Origin: an uncultured Rhodobacterales bacterium
GTDB taxonomy: Bacteria; Pseudomonadota; Alphaproteobacteria; Rhodobacterales; Rhodobacteraceae
Direction of reading: 5' to 3'
NCBI GenBank assembly: GCA_964472855.1
Contig: CAYYMJ010000003.1
Span: 26,933 to 90,932 of the forward strand
Length of the DNA: 64,000 nucleotides
Of the stretch, positions 1-12,149 are shown one piece after another. The notes below the pieces were generated by a model that was not told the origin of the DNA, searched no databases, and saw only the letters and a program-made list of their open reading frames with translations. The first letter of the stretch is position 1, and the number at the start of each line of letters is the position of its first letter. The translations under genes were made by a program, and so were the position numbers.

Positions 1-1624
1 ACTCGGACGCGACCAGGCATACCTTGCGACGGTTGGCCTCGTCCCCACGCCGGCGGAAATGGCCGCGCACCCAGCTTTCCAGGTTATCTTCGGTATCCAG
101 GCTGCGGGCCGCGACAAGGCGCGACCAACCGTTATCAAGCCGGGCCCTTGTTTCCGCCGCTTCGCCGAAATCGACGACCCGACCCGCCTGCATCACGATC
201 AGCCGGTCGCACATTTCCATCAAGCCGCGGTTCTGGCTGACGATCACCACCGACCGGCCCAGCCGTACCTCGTGGCGCAGCCGCTCTTGCAGCGCGGTGA
301 TCTGGCGGTCATGCAGACCGTCTTCGGGCCGGTCGAGCAAATAGACATCCGGGGCCAACAGCAGCGCACGTGCCAGGGCAAGAGATTTTTTCTGCATGTC
401 TGGCAGCAGGTCGGCCGGTCCGTCGCAGATCCGGTCGACCAGGTCGGCCGAAAACACCAGCTTTTCCAGAATTTGCCGCCCACGAGCCTTTGCCGTGCTG
501 TCGTGGAAACAGGCGAGATTGTCTTCGCCGGATGCGGGAAGCACAAGGGGAGCGGGCGGGAGATAGACCGCCGTGACGCGGCGCGGCCCGCGGCCGCGCT
601 GCCACAGATCGTCGCCATGAACCGACACGTGGCCCCTGACCTCGGCCATGGCAATCGAGAATGGATCGGCCAACACCTGCAGCAGCATGGATTTTCCGGC
701 GCCGCTGTCCCCCACCAGGCCGGTGATCGACCCTGCCGGAACGGCGAATGACACGTCGGACAACAACTTTTGCGCGCCGACCGACAGATCCAGCGCCGAC
801 ACCAGCAACCCGCCGGCTTCAATCTCGTCCGGCTCGTCCAGTTCATGGCGCAAAACGCGGGCCGGCGCGTCTGCCCCGGCGCTGGCTGACCGCATCGTGC
901 GCAGCGCTTTCAGCGCGCTGCCGGCGGCCCAATAGGTGATCAGGCCAATGGCCGCCACCGCCGCCGGTTCCAGCACGCCGGTCGCCGAAAGCCAGCTGCC
1001 CGCCGCCAAAGACGCGGCCACTGACAACCATGTCAGCGAAGTCTGAACCGCCCCCGCGAGCGTGTGTTCGTCAAAATCGGTCCGGGCAAGCCTCAGACCT
1101 TCAAGATCGCGCCCGGCAAGCACTGGCACCGCCTCGGCCGGCCGAAAATCCCACGCGGATTCGCGGCCACCAAACCGGCTCAGCAGCCAGAAGACCGCCA
1201 CCCCAAGCAGACCGGCGACCAGAACGGGAAACAGCAACAGCGGATGCACCAGCCCGAAGGCCAAGGCAACGATCAGGCCCATCCATCCCTGCACGCGGAC
1301 AAAGGTCTTGCGCCGCTCGCTGCGGAACCCTGCCATGGCCCGCGCATGGGCATAATCCAGGCCGATGGCGCCAAGGATCGGCACCGCGACGATGGCCAGA
1401 AGCACCGGCGCAAGCCCCAGCTCGCCCTGTTCGGCCACCAGCGACTGGAAGAACAGCGCCGACAGGGCCGCGGCCAGCCAGCAAAGCCCGATCAGCACCG
1501 CAAAGATGCCGCTGATTGCGCGCGCCCAACCGGGCGAACGCCGATCGACGCCCTCAAGGTTCAGTTGTCCCGCCTCTTCCATCGGAAAGAGATTGCCGGG
1601 TGTTTCGGAATCGCCGTGTGCCAT
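1..1624 (-). CDS. Membrane-anchored ABC-type ATP-binding protein with degenerate NBD and extra C-terminal domain (3' end runs off the window)
   Basis: Absent from the ORF track because no stop lies in the window. My translation of the minus strand from ATG 1624-1622 stays open to base 1 (541 codons). About 250 aa hydrophobic N-terminus (roughly 6 TM helices). Walker A is GDSGAGKS. The signature is LPDMQ instead of LSGGQ, the Walker B region is VYLLDRPEDG (Arg where the catalytic Glu sits), and the switch His is replaced (VVIVSQNRG). The frame then continues SRLVAARSLDTEDNLESWVRGHFRRRGDEANRRKVCLVASE, resembling the N-terminus of RsbW/SpoIIAB-type kinases. Confidence 0.75.
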   Translation of the reverse strand, partial: MAHGDSETPGNLFPMEEAGQLNLEGVDRRSPGWARAISGIFAVLIGLCWLAAALSALFFQSLVAEQGELGLAPVLLAIVAVPILGAIGLDYAHARAMAGFRSERRKTFVRVQGWMGLIVALAFGLVHPLLLFPVLVAGLLGVAVFWLLSRFGGRESAWDFRPAEAVPVLAGRDLEGLRLARTDFDEHTLAGAVQTSLTWLSVAASLAAGSWLSATGVLEPAAVAAIGLITYWAAGSALKALRTMRSASAGADAPARVLRHELDEPDEIEAGGLLVSALDLSVGAQKLLSDVSFAVPAGSITGLVGDSGAGKSMLLQVLADPFSIAMAEVRGHVSVHGDDLWQRGRGPRRVTAVYLPPAPLVLPASGEDNLACFHDSTAKARGRQILEKLVFSADLVDRICDGPADLLPDMQKKSLALARALLLAPDVYLLDRPEDGLHDRQITALQERLRHEVRLGRSVVIVSQNRGLMEMCDRLIVMQAGRVVDFGEAAETRARLDNGWSRLVAARSLDTEDNLESWVRGHFRRRGDEANRRKVCLVASE

Positions 1625-1775: not shown

Positions 1776-3464
1776 ATGACGAAGAAAACCGGCTCTTCTC
1801 GCAGGGGCGCCCAATTTGGACTGGCCGCCCTGTGCGGCTCCGCCGTCCTGCTTGCGGGCGCCACCTGGAGCGTCGGTTCAGTGGCCCGGACAATGCTGCT
1901 GAAGCAAGAGGAAGAGATTACGCCAATCATCGCCGGCGGCGACCTTGACCGTATTCCCGCCCTGATGCGCGGCAATCTGGCCACGATGACCACGTCGATG
2001 GTGGACGAGACCGAAAGGCGTGTAAAGCCGCCCCGCATGTGCGAGATGCCCGACAATTATTTTGAACGGCTGGATCGCGGGCTCGACCAGCGCGTCGGCT
2101 ATACCCGCCGCAACGAATATGTCCGCCCCTATCGCGACCGGCGCGGCTTTCTGAACGAGCGCGAGCTTCGCGCCGCCCGCGTTGCCTGGCACTATTTCGA
2201 ACAATTCACTCAGGAAACCACCGGCCTTGCCAATTCGGTTGGCAATTATCCGTCGACCACCATGTGGGACACCGCCAGCTATGTTGCCGGCGCTGTGGCC
2301 GCTTACGAGTTGTGCCTGATCGAAAAGCCCGAATTCGACCAGCGAATTCTGCAGCTTTTGACAACGATCAAGGGGCTGGAACTGTTCCGAAAGGAATTGC
2401 CCAACAAGGTTTATCACACGAAGACCGGCGAAAAGGTCGACTATACCAACAAGCCCGGTGAAATCGGGTTTTCGGCGCTGGATATCGGGCGGTTTCTGGT
2501 CTGGATGCGAATTCTGAAGAATCGCTATCCGCATTTCAGCAACACAATCGATTCGGTACTGTTGAAATGGGATTTCAGTAATGTCGTTGACGACGAGGGC
2601 CTGCTTCACGGCTCTTATGTCGATCGGGAAACCGGCAATACCGTCTACGCCCAGGAAGGGCGGCTGGGTTACGAGGAATATGCCGCCAAGGGTTTTGCCT
2701 TGTGGGGGTTTCAGCCCATTCTGGCGCACCGGGCGGAACCGTTTCTGACCGCGTCGATCTTTGGTGTATCCGTGCCCTATGACGGGCGCGATCCGCGCAT
2801 TTTCCATTCACAGAATTACGTGGTGACGGAAAGCTACCTTCAGGACGGGATGGAGCTGGGCTTCAACCTGCCCCAGGACGACTCCAGCCCCGATTGGCTG
2901 CATTCCGATGGCTGGCGCGCCGAATTCGCCGACCGCATCTACGAGGTTCAGGAAAACCGCTGGCGGCAAACCGGCTATATGACGGCGCGGTCGGAACATA
3001 ACGTCAAGGGGCCGCCGTATTTCACATATGACACGATCTTTTCCGACGGCTATCCCTGGAACACGGTTACGCCGCGCGGGGATTATGTGCCCGACCATGC
3101 CGCGGTTGCCGCCAAGGCGGCGCTCGGGCTGTGGGCTCTTTGGGACACCGACTATACCGATGTCCTGTATGAAGCGATCATCGAGCTTTATAATCCCGAA
3201 AAGGGCATGTTCGAGGGGCTGTATGAACGCGGCCAGGGTCGTGTCGAGATCTTCACCGCCAATAACAACGGCATCATCCTGACCGCGCTGCTGCACAAGG
3301 TGCAGGGCACGATCCTGACGCCCTACACCGGCGAAACCGAGGTCTGGTATACCGCGTTCCGCGATCAGGACCTGCGCCGACGGCGCAACTATCCGGATCC
3401 GCCGCAGGAAGCCGACTGGCTGCCTGCCCTGCGACACTCTCTTCCTATCGAGGTGGACTACTGA
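1776..3464 (+). CDS. DUF3131-like protein (putative glycan-active enzyme) with N-terminal membrane anchor or signal
   Basis: 562-aa ORF with hydrophobic N-terminus (FGLAALCGSAVLLAGATW). Shares blocks with the paralogue at 5040-6359: GNYPSTTMWDTASYV/AGYPAATLWDQGSYV, LPNKVYHT/LPNKVYNT, IGFSALDIGRFL/IGWSAIDIARLL, YAQEGRLGYEEYAAK/YVQEGRIGYEQYAAR. The DUF3131 name is from memory, not a search. Confidence 0.8.
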   Translation: MTKKTGSSRRGAQFGLAALCGSAVLLAGATWSVGSVARTMLLKQEEEITPIIAGGDLDRIPALMRGNLATMTTSMVDETERRVKPPRMCEMPDNYFERLDRGLDQRVGYTRRNEYVRPYRDRRGFLNERELRAARVAWHYFEQFTQETTGLANSVGNYPSTTMWDTASYVAGAVAAYELCLIEKPEFDQRILQLLTTIKGLELFRKELPNKVYHTKTGEKVDYTNKPGEIGFSALDIGRFLVWMRILKNRYPHFSNTIDSVLLKWDFSNVVDDEGLLHGSYVDRETGNTVYAQEGRLGYEEYAAKGFALWGFQPILAHRAEPFLTASIFGVSVPYDGRDPRIFHSQNYVVTESYLQDGMELGFNLPQDDSSPDWLHSDGWRAEFADRIYEVQENRWRQTGYMTARSEHNVKGPPYFTYDTIFSDGYPWNTVTPRGDYVPDHAAVAAKAALGLWALWDTDYTDVLYEAIIELYNPEKGMFEGLYERGQGRVEIFTANNNGIILTALLHKVQGTILTPYTGETEVWYTAFRDQDLRRRRNYPDPPQEADWLPALRHSLPIEVDY

Positions 3465-4969
3465 TGAAATCTCTCAGCTTTTTTGCGCTGGCGCTCTTGC
3501 CTCTGGCCACGTCCGCTGCCGCCCAGGTCGCACAGTCCGCCAGTGGCGCCGATGCCTTCACGTCCGAGAATGCGATCCTTGACACATCCGTGCCCTTCGC
3601 AATTGGCGCCAGCGAGGCGCGGCAAGACCTTCGCGGGTCGTTCGGCTGGCCCACGTTTCAAGAGGGTCTGGTCGAAGGCGTCTATTTCCGTTTCGATCCC
3701 GACGGTTACGCCCGCTTCGCGCCCACGCCCAGGCTGGACAGCGACGTCTTCGAGGTCATCTGCCGTCCGCGCACCTTCAGCTGCATTGCCCGCAAGGGCG
3801 CGCTGACGCTCTTGCTGAATACGCGCGGCCAGCTTGAGATCAACCTTGAGGGCGTGGTCCCGGGCGACACGCTTTACGTCATCGAAGGGGTCACCGAGCT
3901 TCAGATCCCCGACCGGATCCTGCAGCCGCTGGACTGGCATCTGGAAGCGCTGCTGTCCGCAGGGGGCGAACTTGTGGCCCGCCGCGGCCCTGACAATGAA
4001 ATCACCCGCGTGTCTCTGATCGGGTTTCCGGCCGTGACCGCCTATCTGCGCTGGATCACGGCCCGGCAGGACTATACCGTGTTGCCGCGCGGCTGGCCGG
4101 TGCCGAATGCCGGTGGCGGCGCGTCGGGCGCCCTGACCCAGGCGACAGGATGGCCCAACACGTCCGGCCCCGCACAGATTGTCGGCGCTCAGGAGTTTCA
4201 GGCGCAGGCCGCGGAACCGGTCGCCGAAGATTCCGAAGTGGAACTGCTTCGCGGCGATATCGCCCGGCTCAAGCAACTGCTGGAGGGCCGCGGCAGCGTC
4301 GAAACCGGCGCCACCGAGGCGGTGACAATCGCAGGGCCCGCCGCCGCAAGCCAGCCCGCGCCGTCTGCGGATCAGCTGAGCAATCTTGAAACGGCAACGG
4401 CCGCGATATTGCGCGAGTTGGAAGACCTGCGCGGCAAGATACTCGTCATCGAAGACTCGGCCCGCGCCGAGGCTGCGCCCGACCCGGCCGCCTTGCCGGT
4501 CGAGGCGGCCGAGGCCGCCCCGGAAGCCACCGATGCGGTCCAAGAAGCCCCTACGATTTCGCTGGCCGACAAGTTGGACTTTCTCATCACCGAGATCGGC
4601 ATCGATCCGCAATTGGCGGTTGTTCTTGTAGAAATCGGACATCCCGGTGAGACCGAGGGTTACCAGCTTCCCGTCGCCCTGAACGAGGCGTCGACGCTGA
4701 GTTCGGACGAGATTCTGTCGCAGCTTCTGTCGGGCCTGAACGCGGTCGGGCAACTGCCGCTGGCGCAGGCGGAAACGTCGGACGTTGCGGCCGAGCAAGA
4801 GCCGCAGATGATCGCGGAGACATCCGAGCCGGAGGAGGCACCGGTCGCCGAGGCAACCGACGCCGCCGAGGCCGAAGAAACGCCACAGGTTCCCGAATTG
4901 CAGCCCGGCGAATATGTTCTTATTGCCGACTATTTCGCGTCAGTCTTCGGTGACAAGTCCGAAGAGTGA
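3464..4969 (+). CDS. Secreted protein of unknown function with acidic Ala/Glu/Pro-rich C-terminal half
   Basis: 501-aa ORF. Its start ATG overlaps the upstream stop (TGATG at 3462-3466). Clear signal peptide MKSLSFFALALLPLATSAAAQ. C-terminal third is low-complexity and acidic (EAAEAAPEATDAVQEAP, EPEEAPVAEATDAAEAEE). I recognise no family. Confidence 0.7.
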   Translation: MKSLSFFALALLPLATSAAAQVAQSASGADAFTSENAILDTSVPFAIGASEARQDLRGSFGWPTFQEGLVEGVYFRFDPDGYARFAPTPRLDSDVFEVICRPRTFSCIARKGALTLLLNTRGQLEINLEGVVPGDTLYVIEGVTELQIPDRILQPLDWHLEALLSAGGELVARRGPDNEITRVSLIGFPAVTAYLRWITARQDYTVLPRGWPVPNAGGGASGALTQATGWPNTSGPAQIVGAQEFQAQAAEPVAEDSEVELLRGDIARLKQLLEGRGSVETGATEAVTIAGPAAASQPAPSADQLSNLETATAAILRELEDLRGKILVIEDSARAEAAPDPAALPVEAAEAAPEATDAVQEAPTISLADKLDFLITEIGIDPQLAVVLVEIGHPGETEGYQLPVALNEASTLSSDEILSQLLSGLNAVGQLPLAQAETSDVAAEQEPQMIAETSEPEEAPVAEATDAAEAEETPQVPELQPGEYVLIADYFASVFGDKSEE

Positions 4970-5039: not shown

Positions 5040-6359
5040 TCAGTTTGCCAGTGACGCGTGGGCCTGCATGAAGGGCCCGTATTGCACCCGGTGCAGGGCT
5101 TCCAGGACAACCGCATTGGTGTTGAGCGACAAGACCGCGTTATCCTCGCCGGTGGCCTCATAGCGACCGGCCATCCATCCGCCCGGATCCTGACCAAGAT
5201 CGGCCAGCCCCGACACCACCATCTCAGTGTATTCGGTGCCAAAGATCGCGTCCCAGCCAAAGGCCGCCTTGACGCTGACGGTTCGCAATTCGGGATAGTT
5301 GCCGCCGCCTTCGGTCAAGGCCGGCCAGTCCTTGCCGTCACCCCGCACCGCTGCGTAAAGAAAATAGGGGTCGCGGTCGAGGTGATCCTCGGTGACGGCG
5401 GTGATGATGCCCTTGTTTTCATAGCGGGCCTCTTGCGCGCGATAGACCTGCTGGGCAAGACGATGACCGTCGGCATCGAAACCCAGCTCCAGACCTTGCA
5501 GGACGAAGGGCTCGCTCAGCACCGGCGTGATGGCACCAAACCGCAGGTGAGACCTGCGGTCCTTTGGGATATCCACGCCTTCCGTGCTGGTCCAGGCCAA
5601 CACGCGCCGTACCGATATGGCCGCGCCGACGTCGAGCCCCCAAAGCGCGGCGGCCCGGGCGGCATATTGTTCATAGCCGATCCGGCCTTCCTGCACATAG
5701 TTGGTTTCGTCGTCGGACACGTTGGCACCGATAAGCTCGCCGCTGCCGCCGATGTCGGCGACCTTCCAGTTGCCGATAACAACGCGAATGGCCGGGCCGA
5801 AACGGGGAAAATGCCGCTCGGCGCTTCGCAGGGCCAGCAGCAGACGCGCAATATCAATGGCCGACCAGCCGATGCCGCCGTCAACAACTTCGTTGCCATA
5901 ATTCACCATGGCCAGCGTCATGGTGTTGTACACCTTGTTGGGCAGGCGTCCCTCGAACAATGGCAAAAGGGAAAGGCTGGTCAGAAAGCTCGTCAACCGC
6001 TCGTCGAAGTCGTCATCGTCGATGATATCCAGCCGCCGCGCCGAGATCAGCGCGAACACGTAACTTCCCTGGTCCCAAAGCGTTGCTGCGGGATAACCGG
6101 CCACGGAATCGACGAACCCGGTTTCGGGGCGCGTATTCTCTTCGAAATATCGCCATGCCGTCCGCGCGGCCGCGCGTTCCGGCTGCGTCAGCCCACGCAG
6201 GGGCGCGACGGGCAAAAGATCGTTGTCAATTGTCACCGGCGTGTCCATCCTCGTGTTGACCAACTCGCCACCTTCGATCCACAGCGAAACAGAGGCCGCC
6301 AACGCAAGCCCGGACACAAGCAAGACGCTTGATCTGTATTTGGCAACAACATCGGACAT
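5040..6359 (-). CDS. DUF3131-like protein, paralogue 2, N-terminal membrane anchor
   Basis: Start moved from the track start 6440 to ATG 6359 (MSDVVAKYRSSVLLVSGLALAASVSLW), preceded by AGGAGAAGA. Shares motif blocks with 1776-3464 (see that feature). Confidence 0.8.
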   Translation of the reverse strand: MSDVVAKYRSSVLLVSGLALAASVSLWIEGGELVNTRMDTPVTIDNDLLPVAPLRGLTQPERAAARTAWRYFEENTRPETGFVDSVAGYPAATLWDQGSYVFALISARRLDIIDDDDFDERLTSFLTSLSLLPLFEGRLPNKVYNTMTLAMVNYGNEVVDGGIGWSAIDIARLLLALRSAERHFPRFGPAIRVVIGNWKVADIGGSGELIGANVSDDETNYVQEGRIGYEQYAARAAALWGLDVGAAISVRRVLAWTSTEGVDIPKDRRSHLRFGAITPVLSEPFVLQGLELGFDADGHRLAQQVYRAQEARYENKGIITAVTEDHLDRDPYFLYAAVRGDGKDWPALTEGGGNYPELRTVSVKAAFGWDAIFGTEYTEMVVSGLADLGQDPGGWMAGRYEATGEDNAVLSLNTNAVVLEALHRVQYGPFMQAHASLAN

Positions 6360-6384: not shown

Positions 6385-8124
6385 CTATCGGGCAGGCGCG
6401 TGGCGTGCCAGAAACCCGGTGGTAAGCGTCCCGACGGCAACCGACAAAAGGCCCCAGGAATTCCAGACGATCCAGGCGGTATTGACGGTCAGGAACGAGG
6501 CGTCATAGCCATCGCGCCCAACACTTGCCGACCAGACGCCCACGGCTATGGCGGAAAAACCCGCGGCAACAATCAAAAGCCCGGGCAGGGCAAGACGCAG
6601 ATCATCCCCCTTCGTCGGAATCTTCGGGGTCGCGACAAAGCGGATCGGCAAACGCCGCCACGCAACCCACAGGCCGCGGAGGTTGGTGACCAGGCCCGAC
6701 AGGGCCAGCCTGCGTCCGGCATCGTGGGCGTGGGACTTGCTGCCAATTGCCAGCGCAATCTCGGCCGAAACCAGAAACGGCAGCAGGTGGGCAAAAAAGG
6801 ACGACGCGTAATTCCCGACCGGCGCGACACCTGTCATGAGCGCAATGATCGGTGCGGCGATCAGAATTGGTGCCCAGATCGCCGAAAGGTAGGACCAGAA
6901 TGTCGCCAGATAATGCAATCTGGTCGCCAGCGGCATTCCGTTCTGCGCAACCCCCGGCTCGTTGAAAAACAGGTCAAACGATCCGCCGGCATATTTGAAA
7001 CTTTGCAGCGTCCAGGCCCTGTAGGACCTTGGCGACAGCATCTTGGCCTCGACCCTGGGGTGATAAACCGATCGCCAGCCCAAGCCGTGCTGAATGCGTG
7101 ACGTGCAGATATCTTCGGAAACATGAAAGCGAAAGGGCTCGACCTGCGGGGTTGCGCGGCCGCGGGCCAGCCCCGGGTCGCCGTCGACCAGCGTCTGCAG
7201 GCGGCTGCGCCGGGCCAGAGCCGACGCAAACAGGGCGTCGCGGCGATGAACCGAACCGGCCCCACAGCAGAATGACGCATGATTGCGGTCGCGGCGGCGC
7301 TGGATCACGTCAAAAAACAGCAGGGACGAGGCAAAGAACGGATCCCCGCCAACCTTTACCTTTTCCAGACGCCGCAAAACACCCAGCGGCAGCAACTGCG
7401 CACATTTTTGCGACATCGAGCGTAGCAGACTGGCCAGGGTCACACCCTCGGGGACCTCGTAGAACCAGTGTGGGGTCTGAACCCAGCCAACCCGGGAATC
7501 GTTGAAATAGCCCAGCGTATTTTCCAGAAACCCCGGGAAAAGCCGGGTGTCGGCGTCGCAAATGACCAGAAATGCCCCATTGGTCCGGAACAGCACATGA
7601 CGCAGGTTCCCGGCCTTGTAGCCCAGGTTGTCGGGGCGGTCGAAGTAACCGATGCCATATTCGGTGGCCAGCGCGGCGGCTTCGGGGCGGCAACCGTCGT
7701 CGGCAAGGTGGATCATGGCGCGAAAGCCCGGCGGCACCCGAACCGACAGCGCATCGCGAATGGTCGGCCGCAATATTTCAGGCGGTTCGTCAAGGCTGGC
7801 GATGACGATGTCGACGACAACCTCGTCGTCCGGACCATGGCCAGCGCCGACCGGGGCCGGGGACAGGGGGCGCGACGGCTCTTTCCAGATGTCAAAAATG
7901 AACAAAGCCAGCCCGGCATAGGCCAGCGTTTCGGCCGACGCGGTTGCGACCGAGAACAAGGGGGCGGCGTCGTTCAGCCCCGCGCTCCAACGCCACCACA
8001 GATACCAGGCACCAAAGCCCAGCGCCATGGACGCGACAAGCTGCCAGGCGGTGCTGCGCGCCGTGCTCATCAAGGTCAGCTCTGGCGGCTGAACATGTTC
8101 AAAGTCTTCGAAATAAGCTGTCAT
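6385..8124 (-). CDS. Processive family-2 glycosyltransferase, cellulose-synthase (BcsA)-like catalytic core, no PilZ domain
   Basis: 579-aa ORF with BcsA-type blocks in order: DIVIASLDEP, HLADDG, ICDADT, VQTPHWF, FCCGAGSVHRRDAL, SEDICTS, then QSFKYAGG where QxxRW is expected. TM helices at both ends. The C-terminus shows no RxxxR/DxSxxG PilZ signature. Confidence 0.9.
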   Translation of the reverse strand: MTAYFEDFEHVQPPELTLMSTARSTAWQLVASMALGFGAWYLWWRWSAGLNDAAPLFSVATASAETLAYAGLALFIFDIWKEPSRPLSPAPVGAGHGPDDEVVVDIVIASLDEPPEILRPTIRDALSVRVPPGFRAMIHLADDGCRPEAAALATEYGIGYFDRPDNLGYKAGNLRHVLFRTNGAFLVICDADTRLFPGFLENTLGYFNDSRVGWVQTPHWFYEVPEGVTLASLLRSMSQKCAQLLPLGVLRRLEKVKVGGDPFFASSLLFFDVIQRRRDRNHASFCCGAGSVHRRDALFASALARRSRLQTLVDGDPGLARGRATPQVEPFRFHVSEDICTSRIQHGLGWRSVYHPRVEAKMLSPRSYRAWTLQSFKYAGGSFDLFFNEPGVAQNGMPLATRLHYLATFWSYLSAIWAPILIAAPIIALMTGVAPVGNYASSFFAHLLPFLVSAEIALAIGSKSHAHDAGRRLALSGLVTNLRGLWVAWRRLPIRFVATPKIPTKGDDLRLALPGLLIVAAGFSAIAVGVWSASVGRDGYDASFLTVNTAWIVWNSWGLLSVAVGTLTTGFLARHAPAR

Positions 8125-8133
8125 GGAATCCGT

Positions 8134-8868
8134 TTATCCGCCGCCGTTGGCGCGAAGAAAATCATCGACAAAGGCATCGGCCACGCCGACCACAAGCTCG
8201 CGTTCGGAAAGCCACGCCTCGGCGGTCGGGCGGCTGGAATAGCTCCAGACGCCAACCGACAGTTTCGTGCTGAGATCACGCGACAACAGCGCCGTCTGTG
8301 TCAGGCTGGCGAAGACCGAATAGGTATAATCACAGCTGCTGTCGGGGTCGGTGAAGGAAAAGAACACGCCAAGCTTGGGTTGCCCCGGCAATCGCGCGGC
8401 TTCGGCCGGGTCAAGCACCAAGAGACCGGCCGCGCGCAGCCTGGTTTCGAATTCTTCCTGAAGCTCGGTCCCGAAGCTCGAACTGTATCCCGGCGGCGGA
8501 CGCATGTTCCGCAAATCGACGCCCACACCGATCAGACCGCGCAGGGCATCCAGCTTGTCGGACAGAAACTGACGCTCGGTGTCATATTCGGGGGCGCCAG
8601 GCTCCAGATTGTTCTGGCAAATGCGCGGGGCATCCGGGTTCTGCCCCTCGTCGATCGCGCCATGATCGGCAGGCCCGAACATGCGATACAGCCATTCGTC
8701 GTTTTCCGGCGTGAAAAGACGGCTGCGATACGCGCTTTCGCAGGCAGCGCCGTCACAGTCTTCGTCGGTCTGGCGATGCTCCCACAGCAGCCAGAACCGG
8801 TCTTCCGGCGCGGCCTGAGCCGATGCTGCAACCGCCAGGAACAGCCCCAGGATTGCGGCGCGTTTCAT
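8134..8868 (-). CDS. Periplasmic or secreted protein of unknown function
   Basis: 244-aa ORF with signal peptide MKRAAILGLFLAVAASAQA. Lies 9 nt downstream of the GT2 stop (GT2 ends 8124, this stop is at 8134) and overlaps the next upstream gene by 4 nt. No family recognised. Confidence 0.7.
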   Translation of the reverse strand: MKRAAILGLFLAVAASAQAAPEDRFWLLWEHRQTDEDCDGAACESAYRSRLFTPENDEWLYRMFGPADHGAIDEGQNPDAPRICQNNLEPGAPEYDTERQFLSDKLDALRGLIGVGVDLRNMRPPPGYSSSFGTELQEEFETRLRAAGLLVLDPAEAARLPGQPKLGVFFSFTDPDSSCDYTYSVFASLTQTALLSRDLSTKLSVGVWSYSSRPTAEAWLSERELVVGVADAFVDDFLRANGGG

Positions 8869-10343
8869 GCCCGCCGCGCCTGCCGCCGCGCGCTTTGCAG
8901 TGGACCGACATTGTCCAGCGGTCCGGCCGGAACCACGCCGGCATGGGCGAAGGCATAGTCAAATGCCCAATTCGGGCCGGTGATCTTGCGATCGACCAGC
9001 GCGCCGCGCCCGACCACCGTGTCGGGCAGGATGATGCTGTTACGCACGACCGAGCCGCGGGCAGCCACCGCGCCACTGCCCAGCACCGACGGACCAATCA
9101 TCTGGGCGCCGCGTTCCACCCGGGCGCCACGGCCCACGTAGCAAGGGCCATCGACGGTCGCCAGCCGCGAGAATTCGGCGCCGTCTTCGACCCAGATGCC
9201 AGGGTGGATCTGCCGGGCGTCGGGCAAGAGGATGCCGTCGACGCCGCGCAGGCCCTTTTGCAGAACGCTCGCATAGTCACGCCCGCACCCCACGTCATGC
9301 CAGCTGAAGTCGGGCGCCCAGCATTGCACGTGGCCCCCATGTTCAAGCAGTCGCGGCAAGAGATCGGTCGCGATGTCCTGGCCCGCACCCTCGGGCAGAT
9401 AGGAAACCGCCTCGGGGCTGAACACGTAGATCCCCGTGTTGGCCAGTCTTGACCGCGCCTGCGTCTGGTCGGGCTTTTCCTGAAAAGACGTGACCCGGCC
9501 TTCGCCGTCACGGCAAATGATGCCGTATTTCGAGACCTGGTCTTCGGGCACGGTCTGGGCGGCGATGGTGGCAATGGCCCCGGTGTCGCGGTGGTGGGCG
9601 ATCAGTTGGGCGATGTCGAGGTCAACGACCGCGTCGCCGCAAAGCACCAGAAACTCGCGATCGAACAGGGCATGGTCACGGTCGAGCTTTTGCAGGGTCG
9701 AGGCCGACCCAAGCGGCCGTGCACACCAGCCATCCGGGCCGTTATGACCTTCGCGCAGAAACAGCAACGACCGGGTGTCGGACGGTCCCTGGCGGAAGTG
9801 GTCGATGATCTGCTGGCCCAGGTGGCCGGGGTTCAGCGCAAAGTCACGAATGCCAAAAGTTTCGAGGTGACGGACAATGCGCTCGACCACCGGGCGCCCG
9901 AGAATGTCGAGCATGGGCTTGGGATAGATCTCGGACAGGGGCGCAATGCGCGAGCCACGCCCGGCGCAAAGAACCACGGCGCGCACGCCGCGCAAACGAA
10001 ACCGGCGAATGGCGATATCCGACAGGGCCGCGTCGACCGACGGGTAGATCGGCAGGCCCGGGCGCAGGCTGACGCGGTCGACCAGTTGCAGAACCTGCTG
10101 GCCCAGCGCACAGAAGCCGAAACAGATGGATTTGTTGATGGCCATCAGTTCGACCAGGCCGGCAAGCCCGCCGTAGGTCACGCGCCTGACGCGGCTGAAA
10201 TCGATCAGGATCGCGCGCTTGCCCTGCAGGCTCAGCCGGGCGCTGATTTCGGTCAGCGGACCGAAAAGATCGGCCTCGAGCTTGCGGGCCCGCAATTTCA
10301 GCACCGCGATATTGTCGTTGCGGGGTTCGACATCAACCAACAT
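8865..10343 (-). CDS. STAS-domain / sugar-1-phosphate nucleotidyltransferase fusion protein
   Basis: N-terminal ~110 aa look STAS-like (NIAVLKLRARKLEADLFGPLTEISARL...ILIDFSRVRRVTYGGLAGLVEL). This is followed by the nucleotidyltransferase motif VVLCAGRGSRIAPLS..YPKPML and a C-terminal hexapeptide-repeat-like region (GARVERGAQMIGPSVLGSGAVAARGSVVRNSIILPDTVVGRGALV). The start is either ATG 10343 (abuts the upstream stop at 10345) or the track start 10382. Confidence 0.85.
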   Translation of the reverse strand: MLVDVEPRNDNIAVLKLRARKLEADLFGPLTEISARLSLQGKRAILIDFSRVRRVTYGGLAGLVELMAINKSICFGFCALGQQVLQLVDRVSLRPGLPIYPSVDAALSDIAIRRFRLRGVRAVVLCAGRGSRIAPLSEIYPKPMLDILGRPVVERIVRHLETFGIRDFALNPGHLGQQIIDHFRQGPSDTRSLLFLREGHNGPDGWCARPLGSASTLQKLDRDHALFDREFLVLCGDAVVDLDIAQLIAHHRDTGAIATIAAQTVPEDQVSKYGIICRDGEGRVTSFQEKPDQTQARSRLANTGIYVFSPEAVSYLPEGAGQDIATDLLPRLLEHGGHVQCWAPDFSWHDVGCGRDYASVLQKGLRGVDGILLPDARQIHPGIWVEDGAEFSRLATVDGPCYVGRGARVERGAQMIGPSVLGSGAVAARGSVVRNSIILPDTVVGRGALVDRKITGPNWAFDYAFAHAGVVPAGPLDNVGPLQSARRQARRA

Positions 10344-10344
10344 T

Positions 10345-11478
10345 TCAGGTGATCTCCGCTGTCTGGGTGTTGCGACGGCCAAGGCGCGGCAGGGGGCCCA
10401 GCCCGATGGTCCAGGCGATCAGGGGAATTCGGCCCATGATGGCCACCAGGATCGACGTTGTCGTAAGCGTCCAGACGATCTTGATCAGCACTTGCAGGGT
10501 CGGCGTCAGCGCGACGTTGCTTAGCGCGATTTCCGCCAGGTCGAGGAAGATCGGGTGACACAGGTAGATGCCGAATGAATAGGGTGCCAGCCGGGACAGG
10601 ATGGGCGGCCAGCGGCGATGCGCCAGCGACATGCAGCCGGCAAACAGCGCCACCGGCATCAGGAAATCGGCCCAGTAACCGGCGGTATAGTTGAAGGGCC
10701 ACGCACCGGATTCGATGGTCTTGTAGCTGGCCACCAGTTTGAGCGTGAACAGCGCCAGGCCGATGTAAAGCGCCGGCAGAAACCACTCTCGCCCGTCGGT
10801 GGCGCGCAAGCGATCCCAAAGGCCCAGCGCCGCGGCGGCGGCAAAGCCATAGCCCGCATAGGTCAGAACCTTGACGGCCCGAACCGCGAATTCCAGCCAG
10901 GCGGCGTCGTAAAATGTGCCATAAAGAAAGCCGTCGAGCTCGCGCTTGACCAGCAGGCAGACGATCACGGCCATCCCGAATTGCGGATACTTCCGGGCCA
11001 CGCGGAACAGCGGATACATCAGCACCAGAAGAAACAGCGTCGGAAGAAAGTGCATGTGGAATTTCACGCTGCCCAGCGTGGCATATCCCAACAGGGCGAC
11101 CGGGTCCGTCAGGTCGGCCAGCCGCGCGTCAAGATACCCAAAATAGTCTGCCTTTATAAGGGTGTAAAAGACGTAAAACACCGTCCAGAATGCGAAGGGC
11201 ACCAGCAGCCTGCGCACCTGAACAGCGATGGTCTGGCGATAGGTGGCGGGGCGCCGGTCCAGCGACATCAGCAGCAGGAAGACCGAGATCATCAGAAACA
11301 GCTCGGTCCGGGCGGTATAAAGGACCGCCCGCAGCAGGATCGGGCCGGTTCGCTCGGCCAGAGAATAGTCGACCCATGGCAAACCGCTGGAATCCGCCGT
11401 CGAATGCAGCCCGACCATTGACAGCCCCGCCGCAAGGCGCAGGGCATCGAGCCAAACCAGTCTTTCTTTTTCAGCCAT
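10345..11478 (-). CDS. Acyltransferase family 3 (OpgC/OafA-like) integral membrane protein
   Basis: Start chosen at ATG 11478 (MAEKERLVWLDALRLAAGLSMVGLH, typical acyltransferase-3 N-terminus) rather than the track start 11685. About 10 hydrophobic helices across 377 aa. Confidence 0.8.
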   Translation of the reverse strand: MAEKERLVWLDALRLAAGLSMVGLHSTADSSGLPWVDYSLAERTGPILLRAVLYTARTELFLMISVFLLLMSLDRRPATYRQTIAVQVRRLLVPFAFWTVFYVFYTLIKADYFGYLDARLADLTDPVALLGYATLGSVKFHMHFLPTLFLLVLMYPLFRVARKYPQFGMAVIVCLLVKRELDGFLYGTFYDAAWLEFAVRAVKVLTYAGYGFAAAAALGLWDRLRATDGREWFLPALYIGLALFTLKLVASYKTIESGAWPFNYTAGYWADFLMPVALFAGCMSLAHRRWPPILSRLAPYSFGIYLCHPIFLDLAEIALSNVALTPTLQVLIKIVWTLTTTSILVAIMGRIPLIAWTIGLGPLPRLGRRNTQTAEIT

Positions 11479-11621: not shown

Positions 11622-12149
11622 ATGAGCAGAATTGCCTTGATCCTGTTGCTGGTGCTTGCACCCGACAGCCTTGCCGCCCAGGCACTTTCGGCCAATGACT
11701 GCGCCGAAATCCGCGCCGCCTATGGCATAATCCCCCAAGGGTGCCCGGCTGTCGCCGACGTGGCCGCCCCGGTGCGCGCGTTGTCAGAACCGGCCCCGTC
11801 GGATCGCGAAAGCCATATCTTCTTTCCGCACGGCGGCAGCCGGGTCGACCCGGCCGGCGCGGCCCAGATCGAACGGTTGGCCGCGGTTCTGGAATCGCCT
11901 CCTGTGGCGGGCCTGTGCATCCGCCTGACCGGGCACTCTGACGTCTCCGGCGCGGCGGCGGTCAACGTGCGGATCTCGCGGCGCCGGGCCGAGGCCGTGG
12001 CGACCGCGCTGCGGCCGCTGATGGCCGACAATACCCGCATAACCGAGGTGCGGGGCCTGGGCGAAGCCGAACCGCTGCCCTCGATCGACCCGACCAGTTC
12101 CTGGCAACGCCGCGTGGCAATCGAACTGGGGCGCTGTCCGCCGGTCTGA
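11622..12149 (+). CDS. OmpA-like (peptidoglycan-associating) domain protein with signal peptide
   Basis: Start moved to ATG 11622 (MSRIALILLLVLAPDSLAAQA). OmpA C-terminal motif LTGHSDVSGAAAVNVRISRRRAEAVATAL. Divergent from the glycan operon. Confidence 0.75.
   Translation: MSRIALILLLVLAPDSLAAQALSANDCAEIRAAYGIIPQGCPAVADVAAPVRALSEPAPSDRESHIFFPHGGSRVDPAGAAQIERLAAVLESPPVAGLCIRLTGHSDVSGAAAVNVRISRRRAEAVATALRPLMADNTRITEVRGLGEAEPLPSIDPTSSWQRRVAIELGRCPPV

Follow-up and report, generated by a model that had tools for sequence, protein, structure and literature searches.

A conserved fusion of a STAS domain with a CugP-type nucleotidyltransferase in a Rhodobacterales gene cluster, and its possible origin in a partner switch

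Partner switching through STAS domains is textbook knowledge for the control of sigma factors. STAS-enzyme fusions (All4160, XssP) and STAS regulators inside polysaccharide loci (SypA) are also already known, and they are the described systems which stand closest to the gene analyzed here. In All4160 of Anabaena sp. PCC 7120, as also in XssP and All2285, an N-terminal STAS domain is joined to a polysaccharide sugar transferase; the kinase is Alr3423 and the phosphatase is the REC-SpoIIE protein HenR, phosphorylation inhibits the protein, and a variant that cannot be phosphorylated is active (Harada et al. 2026, PMC13555669). Such direct STAS control of a polysaccharide enzyme was shown only in 2026, for this one cyanobacterial glycosyltransferase, and was termed lineage-specific (PMC13555669). 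In the SypA/SypE system of Vibrio fischeri the unphosphorylated STAS protein promotes the Syp polysaccharide biofilm, and its target is unknown (PMC8256260, PMC4517449). Here we surveyed a stretch of 64,000 nucleotides from an uncultured Rhodobacterales bacterium (contig CAYYMJ010000003.1, positions 26,933 to 90,932; the whole stretch is called the window), in which one minus-strand gene encodes a STAS domain, a complete CugP-type nucleotidyltransferase and a beta-helix tail. The fusion is a conserved gene, its STAS domain is nearest to the anti-sigma-factor antagonists, the phosphorylation site of that domain is degenerate, and some unfused relatives carry a full partner switch beside CugP.

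The fusion gene and its parts are distributed as follows.

8865..10343, minus strand: STAS, CugP-like nucleotidyltransferase and beta-helix fusion gene, ATG start, 492 amino acids (aa); open reading frame (ORF) list and Pfam
10005..10343, minus strand: STAS domain, residues 1-113; family profile against the PDB, Pfam on the family members, Foldseek
10155..10202, minus strand: degenerate phospho-loop, residues 48-63 (D-F-S-R-V-R-R-V-T56-Y57-G58-G-L-A-G-L); hidden Markov model (HMM) alignment to TM1442
9258..9989, minus strand: nucleotidyltransferase (Rossmann-like) catalytic domain, residues 119-362; Pfam NTP_transferase and the match to 8x7s
8934..9221, minus strand: C-terminal left-handed beta-helix (hexapeptide) domain, approximately residues 375-470; weak Pfam matches and the model

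A sequence-only reading of this DNA had proposed the STAS domain for residues 1-110, and the proposal holds at the level of the family. The N-terminus of the single sequence matched Pfam STAS_2 with E 0.0045 and STAS with E 0.028 (17.6 and 14.6 bits), both under the Pfam gathering scores, and a STAS call made from this one sequence would be unsafe. A profile of 42 N-terminal domains was searched against the PDB and matched 4qtp (E 3.8e-10), TM1442 (1e-7), RsfB (1e-7) and SpoIIAA (3e-6), with the transporter STAS domains and MlaB scoring lower than the anti-sigma antagonists. Pfam STAS was matched individually by 38 of these 42 N-termini, the best with E 2.8e-11. The AlphaFold2 model of residues 1-116 was predicted with a local distance difference score (pLDDT) of 95.9 and has the STAS topology, a four-stranded sheet in the fold order beta-beta-alpha-beta-alpha-beta-alpha-alpha, with strands at residues 2-7, 12-22, 44-55 and 74-78 and helices at 24-39, 57-69, 82-90 and 103-113. 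Only nucleotidyltransferases were present among the 50 best Foldseek matches of the full-length model, and therefore the N-terminus was modelled and searched separately. Its top PDB matches, with template modelling (TM) scores of 0.7-0.82, were SpoIIAA, TM1442, mycobacterial antagonists and RsbV. Superposition on SpoIIAA, which had been suggested together with the proposal, gave TM 0.78-0.79 (1tid_B and 1th8_B, in complex with SpoIIAB), and the values for TM1442 were 0.78/0.82 at a root-mean-square deviation of 1.8 A. On the family profile and the model taken together, the N-terminal STAS domain is regarded as confirmed.

The joining of the two parts was considered as a possible assembly or frameshift artefact, and this was rejected, as an identical copy of the protein is called on four independent metagenomic contigs and about 80 homologues have the same architecture and start. 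These full-length homologues were found in a search of 5.8 billion proteins; they are 440-525 aa long, 33-47% identical, and all of them have the N-terminal extension. When 1.84 billion representatives were searched exhaustively with HMMER, the fused architecture appeared in about 62 clusters at 50% identity, so the STAS-nucleotidyltransferase fusion is a conserved gene and no artefact. Homologues occur in Shimia, Pseudaestuariivita and metagenome-assembled genomes (MAGs) of Paracoccaceae, precomputed STAS matches exist for many members of the set and one UniRef entry is titled 'STAS domain-containing protein'. The architecture read earlier from the letters, STAS followed by a complete nucleotidyltransferase and a beta-helix tail, is thus correct by Pfam, family profile and model, and it recurs in the homologues. 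The database labels on these proteins are automatic only, and full-text searches found no paper on STAS together with a nucleotidyltransferase in the fusion sense. A TTG start at 10382 would lengthen the ORF; it is unlikely, because the gene callers on the four contigs choose the ATG and Met1 is near-invariant in the homologues.

For the enzyme part, Pfam NTP_transferase matched residues 122-362 with E 3.6e-34, and weak LbH_EIF2B, Hexapep_GlmU and Hexapep matches covered residues 383-456. Of the three Pfam profiles named in the sequence-only reading, NTP_transferase is therefore clear on the single sequence, STAS stays below the cut-offs and the hexapeptide match is weak. Short strands repeat from residue 377 to 462 in the full-length AlphaFold2 model, which has pLDDT 95.5 and a predicted TM score (pTM) of 0.92. 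The catalytic motifs of the window protein are G128-x-G130-S-R132, K142 (in PKPM), D237/D241/D243, E289-K290-P291 and G304, and nine of these residues (G128, G130, R132, K142, D237, D241, D243, E289 and K290) are at least 92% conserved in the close family. Among solved structures 8x7s (tlr0611, whose deposited name is UTP--glucose-1-phosphate uridylyltransferase) is nearest, with E 4.4e-68 by sequence and, in Foldseek, E 3e-34 and TM 0.84 normalised to the target; GDP-mannose pyrophosphorylases rank next with E 1e-21. The enzyme part is closer to CugP than to GalU, RmlA, GlgC or ManC. Literature searches for tlr0611 gave nothing useful. In the species-level genome collection the nearest unfused relatives are cyanobacterial (Prochlorococcus and Synechococcus, about 37% identity over residues 120-456) and from Oxalobacteraceae. 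CugP is described as the cyanobacterial, non-GalU-type uridine diphosphate (UDP)-glucose pyrophosphorylase (Maeda et al. 2014, as cited in PMC8205485).

By sequence and model the catalytic and beta-helix part belongs to this CugP family, which holds its closest solved relative for both domains and has the catalytic motifs in common with it. CugP differs in being 380-400 aa long and in having no STAS domain, and the function of the fusion protein is predicted here from sequence and model. A specificity for UDP-glucose is suggested by the homology to tlr0611/CugP and by the neighbouring BcsA-like glycosyltransferase of family 2 (GT2). The exhaustive HMMER list also contained dozens of proteins of 720-850 aa (P0201, P0204 and P0211 are examples) with a CugP-like N-terminus, in which profile positions 120-456 lie on residues 1-320, and with a second matched stretch.

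The phospho-loop was then compared with the solved antagonists. The segment FSRVRRVTYGGLAGL had been aligned by eye with the DS(S/T)GLG loop, and the register was right: the HMM alignment to TM1442 is free of gaps, and D and G are spaced 11 residues apart in either protein. In SpoIIAA (Ser58) and TM1442 (Ser59) the phospho-serine comes immediately after the Asp of D-S-x-G-L. In the window protein this canonical position, at the N-terminus of helix 2, is held by Tyr57, while Thr56 stands on the Asp position and Gly58 is the next residue. The threonine which was earlier placed "at or beside" the phosphorylatable position is accordingly beside it, and a tyrosine is at it. Across 78 close homologues column 57 contains A, M, R, Y, F, L and others, with Ser/Thr in only one, and among 124 fused proteins Ser/Thr occurs there in four. 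Thr56 is not conserved (Ser/Thr in 30 of the 78), and column 58 has Ser in 46 of the homologues, Ser/Thr in 47 and Ala in 25. The Ser58 of the family was also considered as the phosphosite and was rejected, since residue counting in SpoIIAA and TM1442 and the gap-free alignment both place the site at column 57.

A partner-switching antagonist is expected to have a Ser/Thr after the Asp at helix 2, with a cognate RsbW-type kinase (HATPase_c_2) and a PP2C/SpoIIE phosphatase encoded alongside, and the window protein has neither the residue nor these neighbours. Pfam gene tables, and phmmer with the cluster-linked proteins of the Sphaerotilus and Noviherbaspirillum loci described below (L046 and L070) as queries, found no RsbW-like kinase and no PP2C phosphatase in the 64-kb window or in the flanks of eight fused loci, where up to 10 kb was searched on each side and less on short contigs. 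Direct phosphorylation control of the window fusion protein appears unlikely, because Tyr57 is at the site, Thr56 is unconserved and no RsbW-like or PP2C gene is present at the loci examined. As judged from these sequences the window enzyme is very probably constitutive rather than phospho-regulated.

The missing components are found in the relatives of the gene. Directly upstream of some unfused CugP homologues lies a separate STAS gene in which DS(S/T/A)G is intact, and three full split-switch loci (L046, L070, L089) and three STAS-CugP pairs (L008, L090, L028) were examined. The gene orders of the full loci are given below.

L046, 8370-13583 (Sphaerotilus MAG): REC-SpoIIE, STAS, CugP, HATPase_c_2, GT2 and three DUF3131 genes
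L070, 5483-13769 (Noviherbaspirillum aerium): REC-SpoIIE, GAF-PAS-SpoIIE, STAS, CugP, RsbW-like, GT2 and three DUF3131 genes
L089, 3836-13298 (metagenomic contig): REC-SpoIIE-STAS, CugP, HATPase_c_2, GH2, GH9, GT2 and two DUF3131 genes

The HATPase_c_2 kinase of L046 is RsbW/SpoIIAB-like (E 2e-11), the canonical STAS motif in the betaproteobacterial split clusters is DSSGLG, and in L089 STAS is part of the same 548-aa ORF as its phosphatase (REC-SpoIIE-STAS). The annotation of L089, the sole split locus with a full gene table, lists no sigma factor. The window cluster and the split-switch clusters are homologous as judged by sequence: the window GT2 is 42% identical to that of L070 over 573 aa, the DUF3131 proteins and their split-locus counterparts share 42-56% identity, and the CugP part is 39% identical. 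The sequence-only reading had placed the supply of nucleoside diphosphate (NDP)-sugar under partner-switch or phosphorylation control. This finds no support for the window gene, where the site is lost and no kinase or phosphatase is nearby. The general link between a partner switch and NDP-sugar supply is borne out for the relatives in Sphaerotilus, Noviherbaspirillum and the metagenomic contig, which have the full module beside CugP.

The STAS-CugP gene pair is present in L008, L090 and L028. From these arrangements STAS and CugP are seen as a recurrent functional pair, and the fusion speaks for their acting together, probably by direct contact. In L028, an Acidobacteriota MAG, only 12 nt separate the STAS stop codon from the CugP start, and a fusion through stop-codon loss is for this reason easy to imagine. 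No kinase or phosphatase was found in the flanks of the L008 and L090 pairs. Those two pairs (L008:7956-11167 and L090:4933-9152) lie in a Wzy/Bac_transf-type exopolysaccharide cluster and follow a beta-helix-only protein or an 895-aa Bac_transf-WecG-beta-helix fusion. Each of the three split-switch loci also encodes, close to phosphatase and STAS, a conserved protein of 305-332 aa that is 41-53% identical and has no Pfam family (L089:2855-3832; L070:8557-9555; L046:7421-8338). In L046 and L089 its gene precedes that of the phosphatase, in L070 it sits between the phosphatase genes and STAS, and the fused clusters lack it.

The locus can now be set against the described systems. Like All4160, the window fusion has an N-terminal STAS domain on an enzyme of a polysaccharide pathway, so that the output is an enzyme and not a sigma factor, and its split relatives use the same kind of REC-SpoIIE phosphatase. 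It differs from All4160 in the enzyme part, which is NTP_transferase plus beta-helix and not a 'bacterial sugar transferase' (Bac_transf), and in its occurrence in marine Alphaproteobacteria without a phosphorylatable serine and with no kinase or phosphatase nearby. With the SpoIIAA/RsbV-type antagonists it has the fold and the sequence sub-family in common, and in the split relatives a single locus encodes all three components. Those systems work with an RsbW/SpoIIAB kinase and an RsbU/SpoIIE PP2C phosphatase, whereas the window STAS is attached to an enzyme, lacks the phospho-serine and has no cognate kinase, phosphatase or sigma factor in the window. The likeness to SypA would be a STAS domain within a polysaccharide locus, active when unphosphorylated, with a non-sigma target; SypA itself is stand-alone and phosphorylatable and has no known link to a nucleotidyltransferase.

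Our main reading, to which we give a probability of about one half, is that the fused STAS serves as a constitutive docking or allosteric module on an active CugP-type enzyme. The window gene would encode an active UDP-glucose pyrophosphorylase that feeds the adjacent BcsA-like GT2 of a glucan cluster. The fused STAS would descend from the antagonist of a partner-switching module, whose ancestral type may be seen in the separate genes for a PP2C phosphatase, for STAS directly 5' of CugP and for an RsbW-like kinase directly 3' of it. In the alphaproteobacterial lineage of the window, STAS would have joined CugP, the phospho-serine would have been lost, and the kinase and phosphatase would have gone from the cluster. 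The STAS domain would thus be locked in the 'unphosphorylated' state, which by analogy with the active non-phosphorylatable variant of All4160 may be a 'locked-on' state. In this state it may hold the pyrophosphorylase in an active assembly, or dock it to the synthase so that UDP-glucose is made at the point of use. Direct contact between STAS and CugP is suggested by the logic of gene fusion and by the high pTM of 0.92, which is consistent with a fixed STAS-enzyme arrangement.

Several points weigh against this reading. All NCBIfam equivalog scores of the fusion protein are far under their cut-offs, and the UDP-glucose specificity is argued from homology and neighbourhood. The docking of STAS is likewise argued from gene fusion and pTM, and its candidate partners are several, namely its own catalytic domain, the GT2 and the ABC exporter. 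Ser is frequent at the neighbouring column 58 in the family, though the window protein has Gly there. The search for a kinase and a phosphatase covered the 64-kb window and the flanks of the eight fused loci, and either of them could be encoded elsewhere in the genome.

In one alternative the STAS domain is a sensor of a small molecule (nucleotide, anion or sugar phosphate) which acts allosterically on the pyrophosphorylase without any protein partner. The STAS domain of Rv1739c reportedly binds nucleotides. Nucleotide binding is a property of some STAS domains, and the GTP binding of SpoIIAA is cited in a STAS review (PMC8256260). The former phosphosite is immediately preceded by two conserved basic residues, R53-R54 (Arg/Lys in 39 of 78 and 50 of 78 homologues), and related pyrophosphorylases such as ADP-glucose pyrophosphorylase, a structural neighbour, are classic allosteric enzymes. 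We nevertheless consider a sensor of this kind unlikely: no ligand-binding motif was identified in the STAS domain, the family profile is nearest to the protein-binding anti-sigma antagonists and not to the transporter STAS domains, and the split versions are clearly within protein partner-switch modules.

A second alternative comes from the fused relatives in which the catalytic site has decayed. Catalytic markers (GxGxR, the Lys of PKPM, EKP) are lost in 33 of the 124 fused representatives, with about 26 lacking the essential Lys. These decayed proteins keep the STAS core (D48, G59, L63 and E65) and the cluster position, as seen between Acyl_transf_3 and GT2 at L092:21-1490 and L093:2378-3853 (P0167 and P0181) and in about 30 others. 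From their sequences they are probably pseudo-enzymes or regulatory subunits, and that STAS is kept where the catalytic residues are gone argues, also for our main reading, that STAS and scaffold have a role beyond catalysis. GalF and GMPPA are catalytically impaired paralogues of sugar-nucleotide pyrophosphorylases which act as regulators, and the GMPPA/GMPPB structure 7d72 is among the structural and sequence matches of the fusion protein. The likeness is that a quarter of the fused family is kept despite the loss of catalytic residues, suggesting regulatory pseudo-enzymes; the differences are that the window protein keeps these residues and that GalF and GMPPA have no STAS domain. By extension, the window protein could mainly serve to regulate the GT2 as a subunit, either non-catalytic or with a dual role, in which STAS provides the interaction and UDP-glucose synthesis is a secondary activity. 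We find this as improbable as the sensor, for the window protein and 90 other representatives retain every marker examined, which argues for an active enzyme.

Slightly less probable again is that the fused STAS is still a phospho-switch, on which an unlinked RsbW-type kinase and PP2C phosphatase act at Thr56 or its neighbour and so toggle UDP-glucose synthesis. The complete kinase/phosphatase/STAS module around CugP in the split relatives and the frequency of Ser/Thr at columns 56 and 58 speak for it. So does All4160, a STAS-enzyme fusion which is controlled in this way although its main kinase is not described as adjacent, only the minor kinase All2284 being described beside the STAS-glycosyltransferase gene (PMC13555669). 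It is opposed by the tyrosine at the canonical site, the replacement of the preceding Asp, the lack of conservation at columns 56 and 58, and the absence of RsbW-like and PP2C homologues from the window and the eight fused loci. A STAS domain left over from gene fusion without any function would fit the loss of the phosphosite and of the kinase and phosphatase partners. This is very improbable, as about 60 representatives maintain the domain although they are only about 30% identical, its fold is predicted with confidence (pLDDT 96), and its core residues stay conserved even where the catalytic site decays.

Beyond the window gene, the constitutive-module reading can be extended to a more tentative proposal, which we hold as possible and rather less likely than the reading itself. 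The output of this partner-switch family would be a UDP-glucose pyrophosphorylase/glucan-synthase complex, in which unphosphorylated STAS binds CugP directly, with the gene fusion as its 'Rosetta-stone' proof, and the switch would be hard-wired 'on' in marine Alphaproteobacteria. If this is true, STAS would gate the supply of UDP-glucose, or its hand-off, to a BcsA-like synthase that is without the usual cyclic di-GMP (PilZ) control. Betaproteobacteria would set the switch by an RsbW-like kinase and by sensor-linked PP2C phosphatases with REC and GAF-PAS inputs, and Alphaproteobacteria would have hard-wired it through fusion and loss of the serine, with some enzymes decayed to a STAS-bearing regulatory subunit. 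What is new here is a second STAS-linked enzyme class, at the sugar-nucleotide supply step, in Alphaproteobacteria, Betaproteobacteria and one Acidobacteriota MAG. The loci of one glucan cluster also line up as an evolutionary series of complete split switch, STAS-phosphatase fusion, STAS-enzyme without phosphosite and STAS on a scaffold that is catalytically dead. As the direct partner of STAS the fusion points to CugP and the synthase, and if the proposal is true they would make a concrete class of candidate targets for STAS regulators that are orphans within polysaccharide loci, SypA among them.

The fusion lies in a tightly packed and conserved cluster, with the minus-strand order Acyl_transf_3, fusion, 244-aa protein, 579-aa GT2 and DUF3131. 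The neighbouring features are as follows.

1..1624, minus strand: ABC exporter gene, 5' part, truncated where the window begins; mapped from L001, ABC_tran and type-I-exporter-like matches
1776..3464, plus strand: second DUF3131 protein, 562 aa, in the divergent operon; 52-56% identity to L046 and L070 paralogues
3464..4969, plus strand: 501-aa protein, no family; conserved only in fused-type clusters
5040..6359, minus strand: DUF3131 protein, 439 aa; Pfam E 6e-127, split-locus orthologues 42-46% identical
6385..8124, minus strand: GT2, processive glucan-synthase-like (BcsA-like), 579 aa; Pfam Glycos_transf_2 and Cellulose_synt, NCBIfam CelA E 4e-38
8134..8868, minus strand: 244-aa protein downstream of the fusion, no family; no Pfam or NCBIfam match
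10345..11478, minus strand: Acyl_transf_3 membrane acyltransferase (OpgC/MdoC-like), upstream of the fusion; Pfam E 1.2e-27, NCBIfam MdoC E 4e-8
11622..12149, plus strand: OmpA-family protein, divergently transcribed; Pfam OmpA E 5.8e-10

The acyltransferase gene is kept in the fused loci and its stop is 1 nt from the fusion ATG, while the start of the 244-aa protein overlaps the fusion stop by 4 nt; because of this gap and overlap the fusion and its neighbours are probably co-translated. The 244-aa protein has a hydrophobic N-terminus, signal-peptide-like as judged by eye, and its homologues (42% identity) are present in L004 and L006 and absent from L007 and L093. The GT2 matched BcsA structures with E 1e-20 in the catalytic N-terminal half only (residues 26-223 against BcsA 199-394), and it is presumed to be the consumer of NDP-glucose. 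No PilZ match was found in this 579-aa protein, and therefore it would be without the usual cyclic di-GMP control of cellulose-synthase-like enzymes.

For DUF3131, a PDB search with the single sequence gave no informative match and the literature nothing useful. A profile of 12 DUF3131 sequences matched, remotely and over a short stretch, both 8wy1 ('Glycosyltransferase 36', E 1.2e-6) and, in cyclic beta-1,2-glucan synthases, the cyclisation region at residues about 980-1090 (E 3.7e-4). Because of this remote match there is a hint that the cluster makes or remodels beta-1,2-glucan; with the NCBIfam matches also considered, our guess for the product is a beta-1,2-glucan that may be succinylated.

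No match to the 501-aa protein, the 244-aa protein or the ABC exporter was found in the split-type loci. The 501-aa protein and the large ABC exporter (permease/ATPase, 650 aa in L001) are present in every fused locus that is long enough to show them, and the OmpA-family gene is at the same position in the fused loci L001-L004, L006, L007 and L093.

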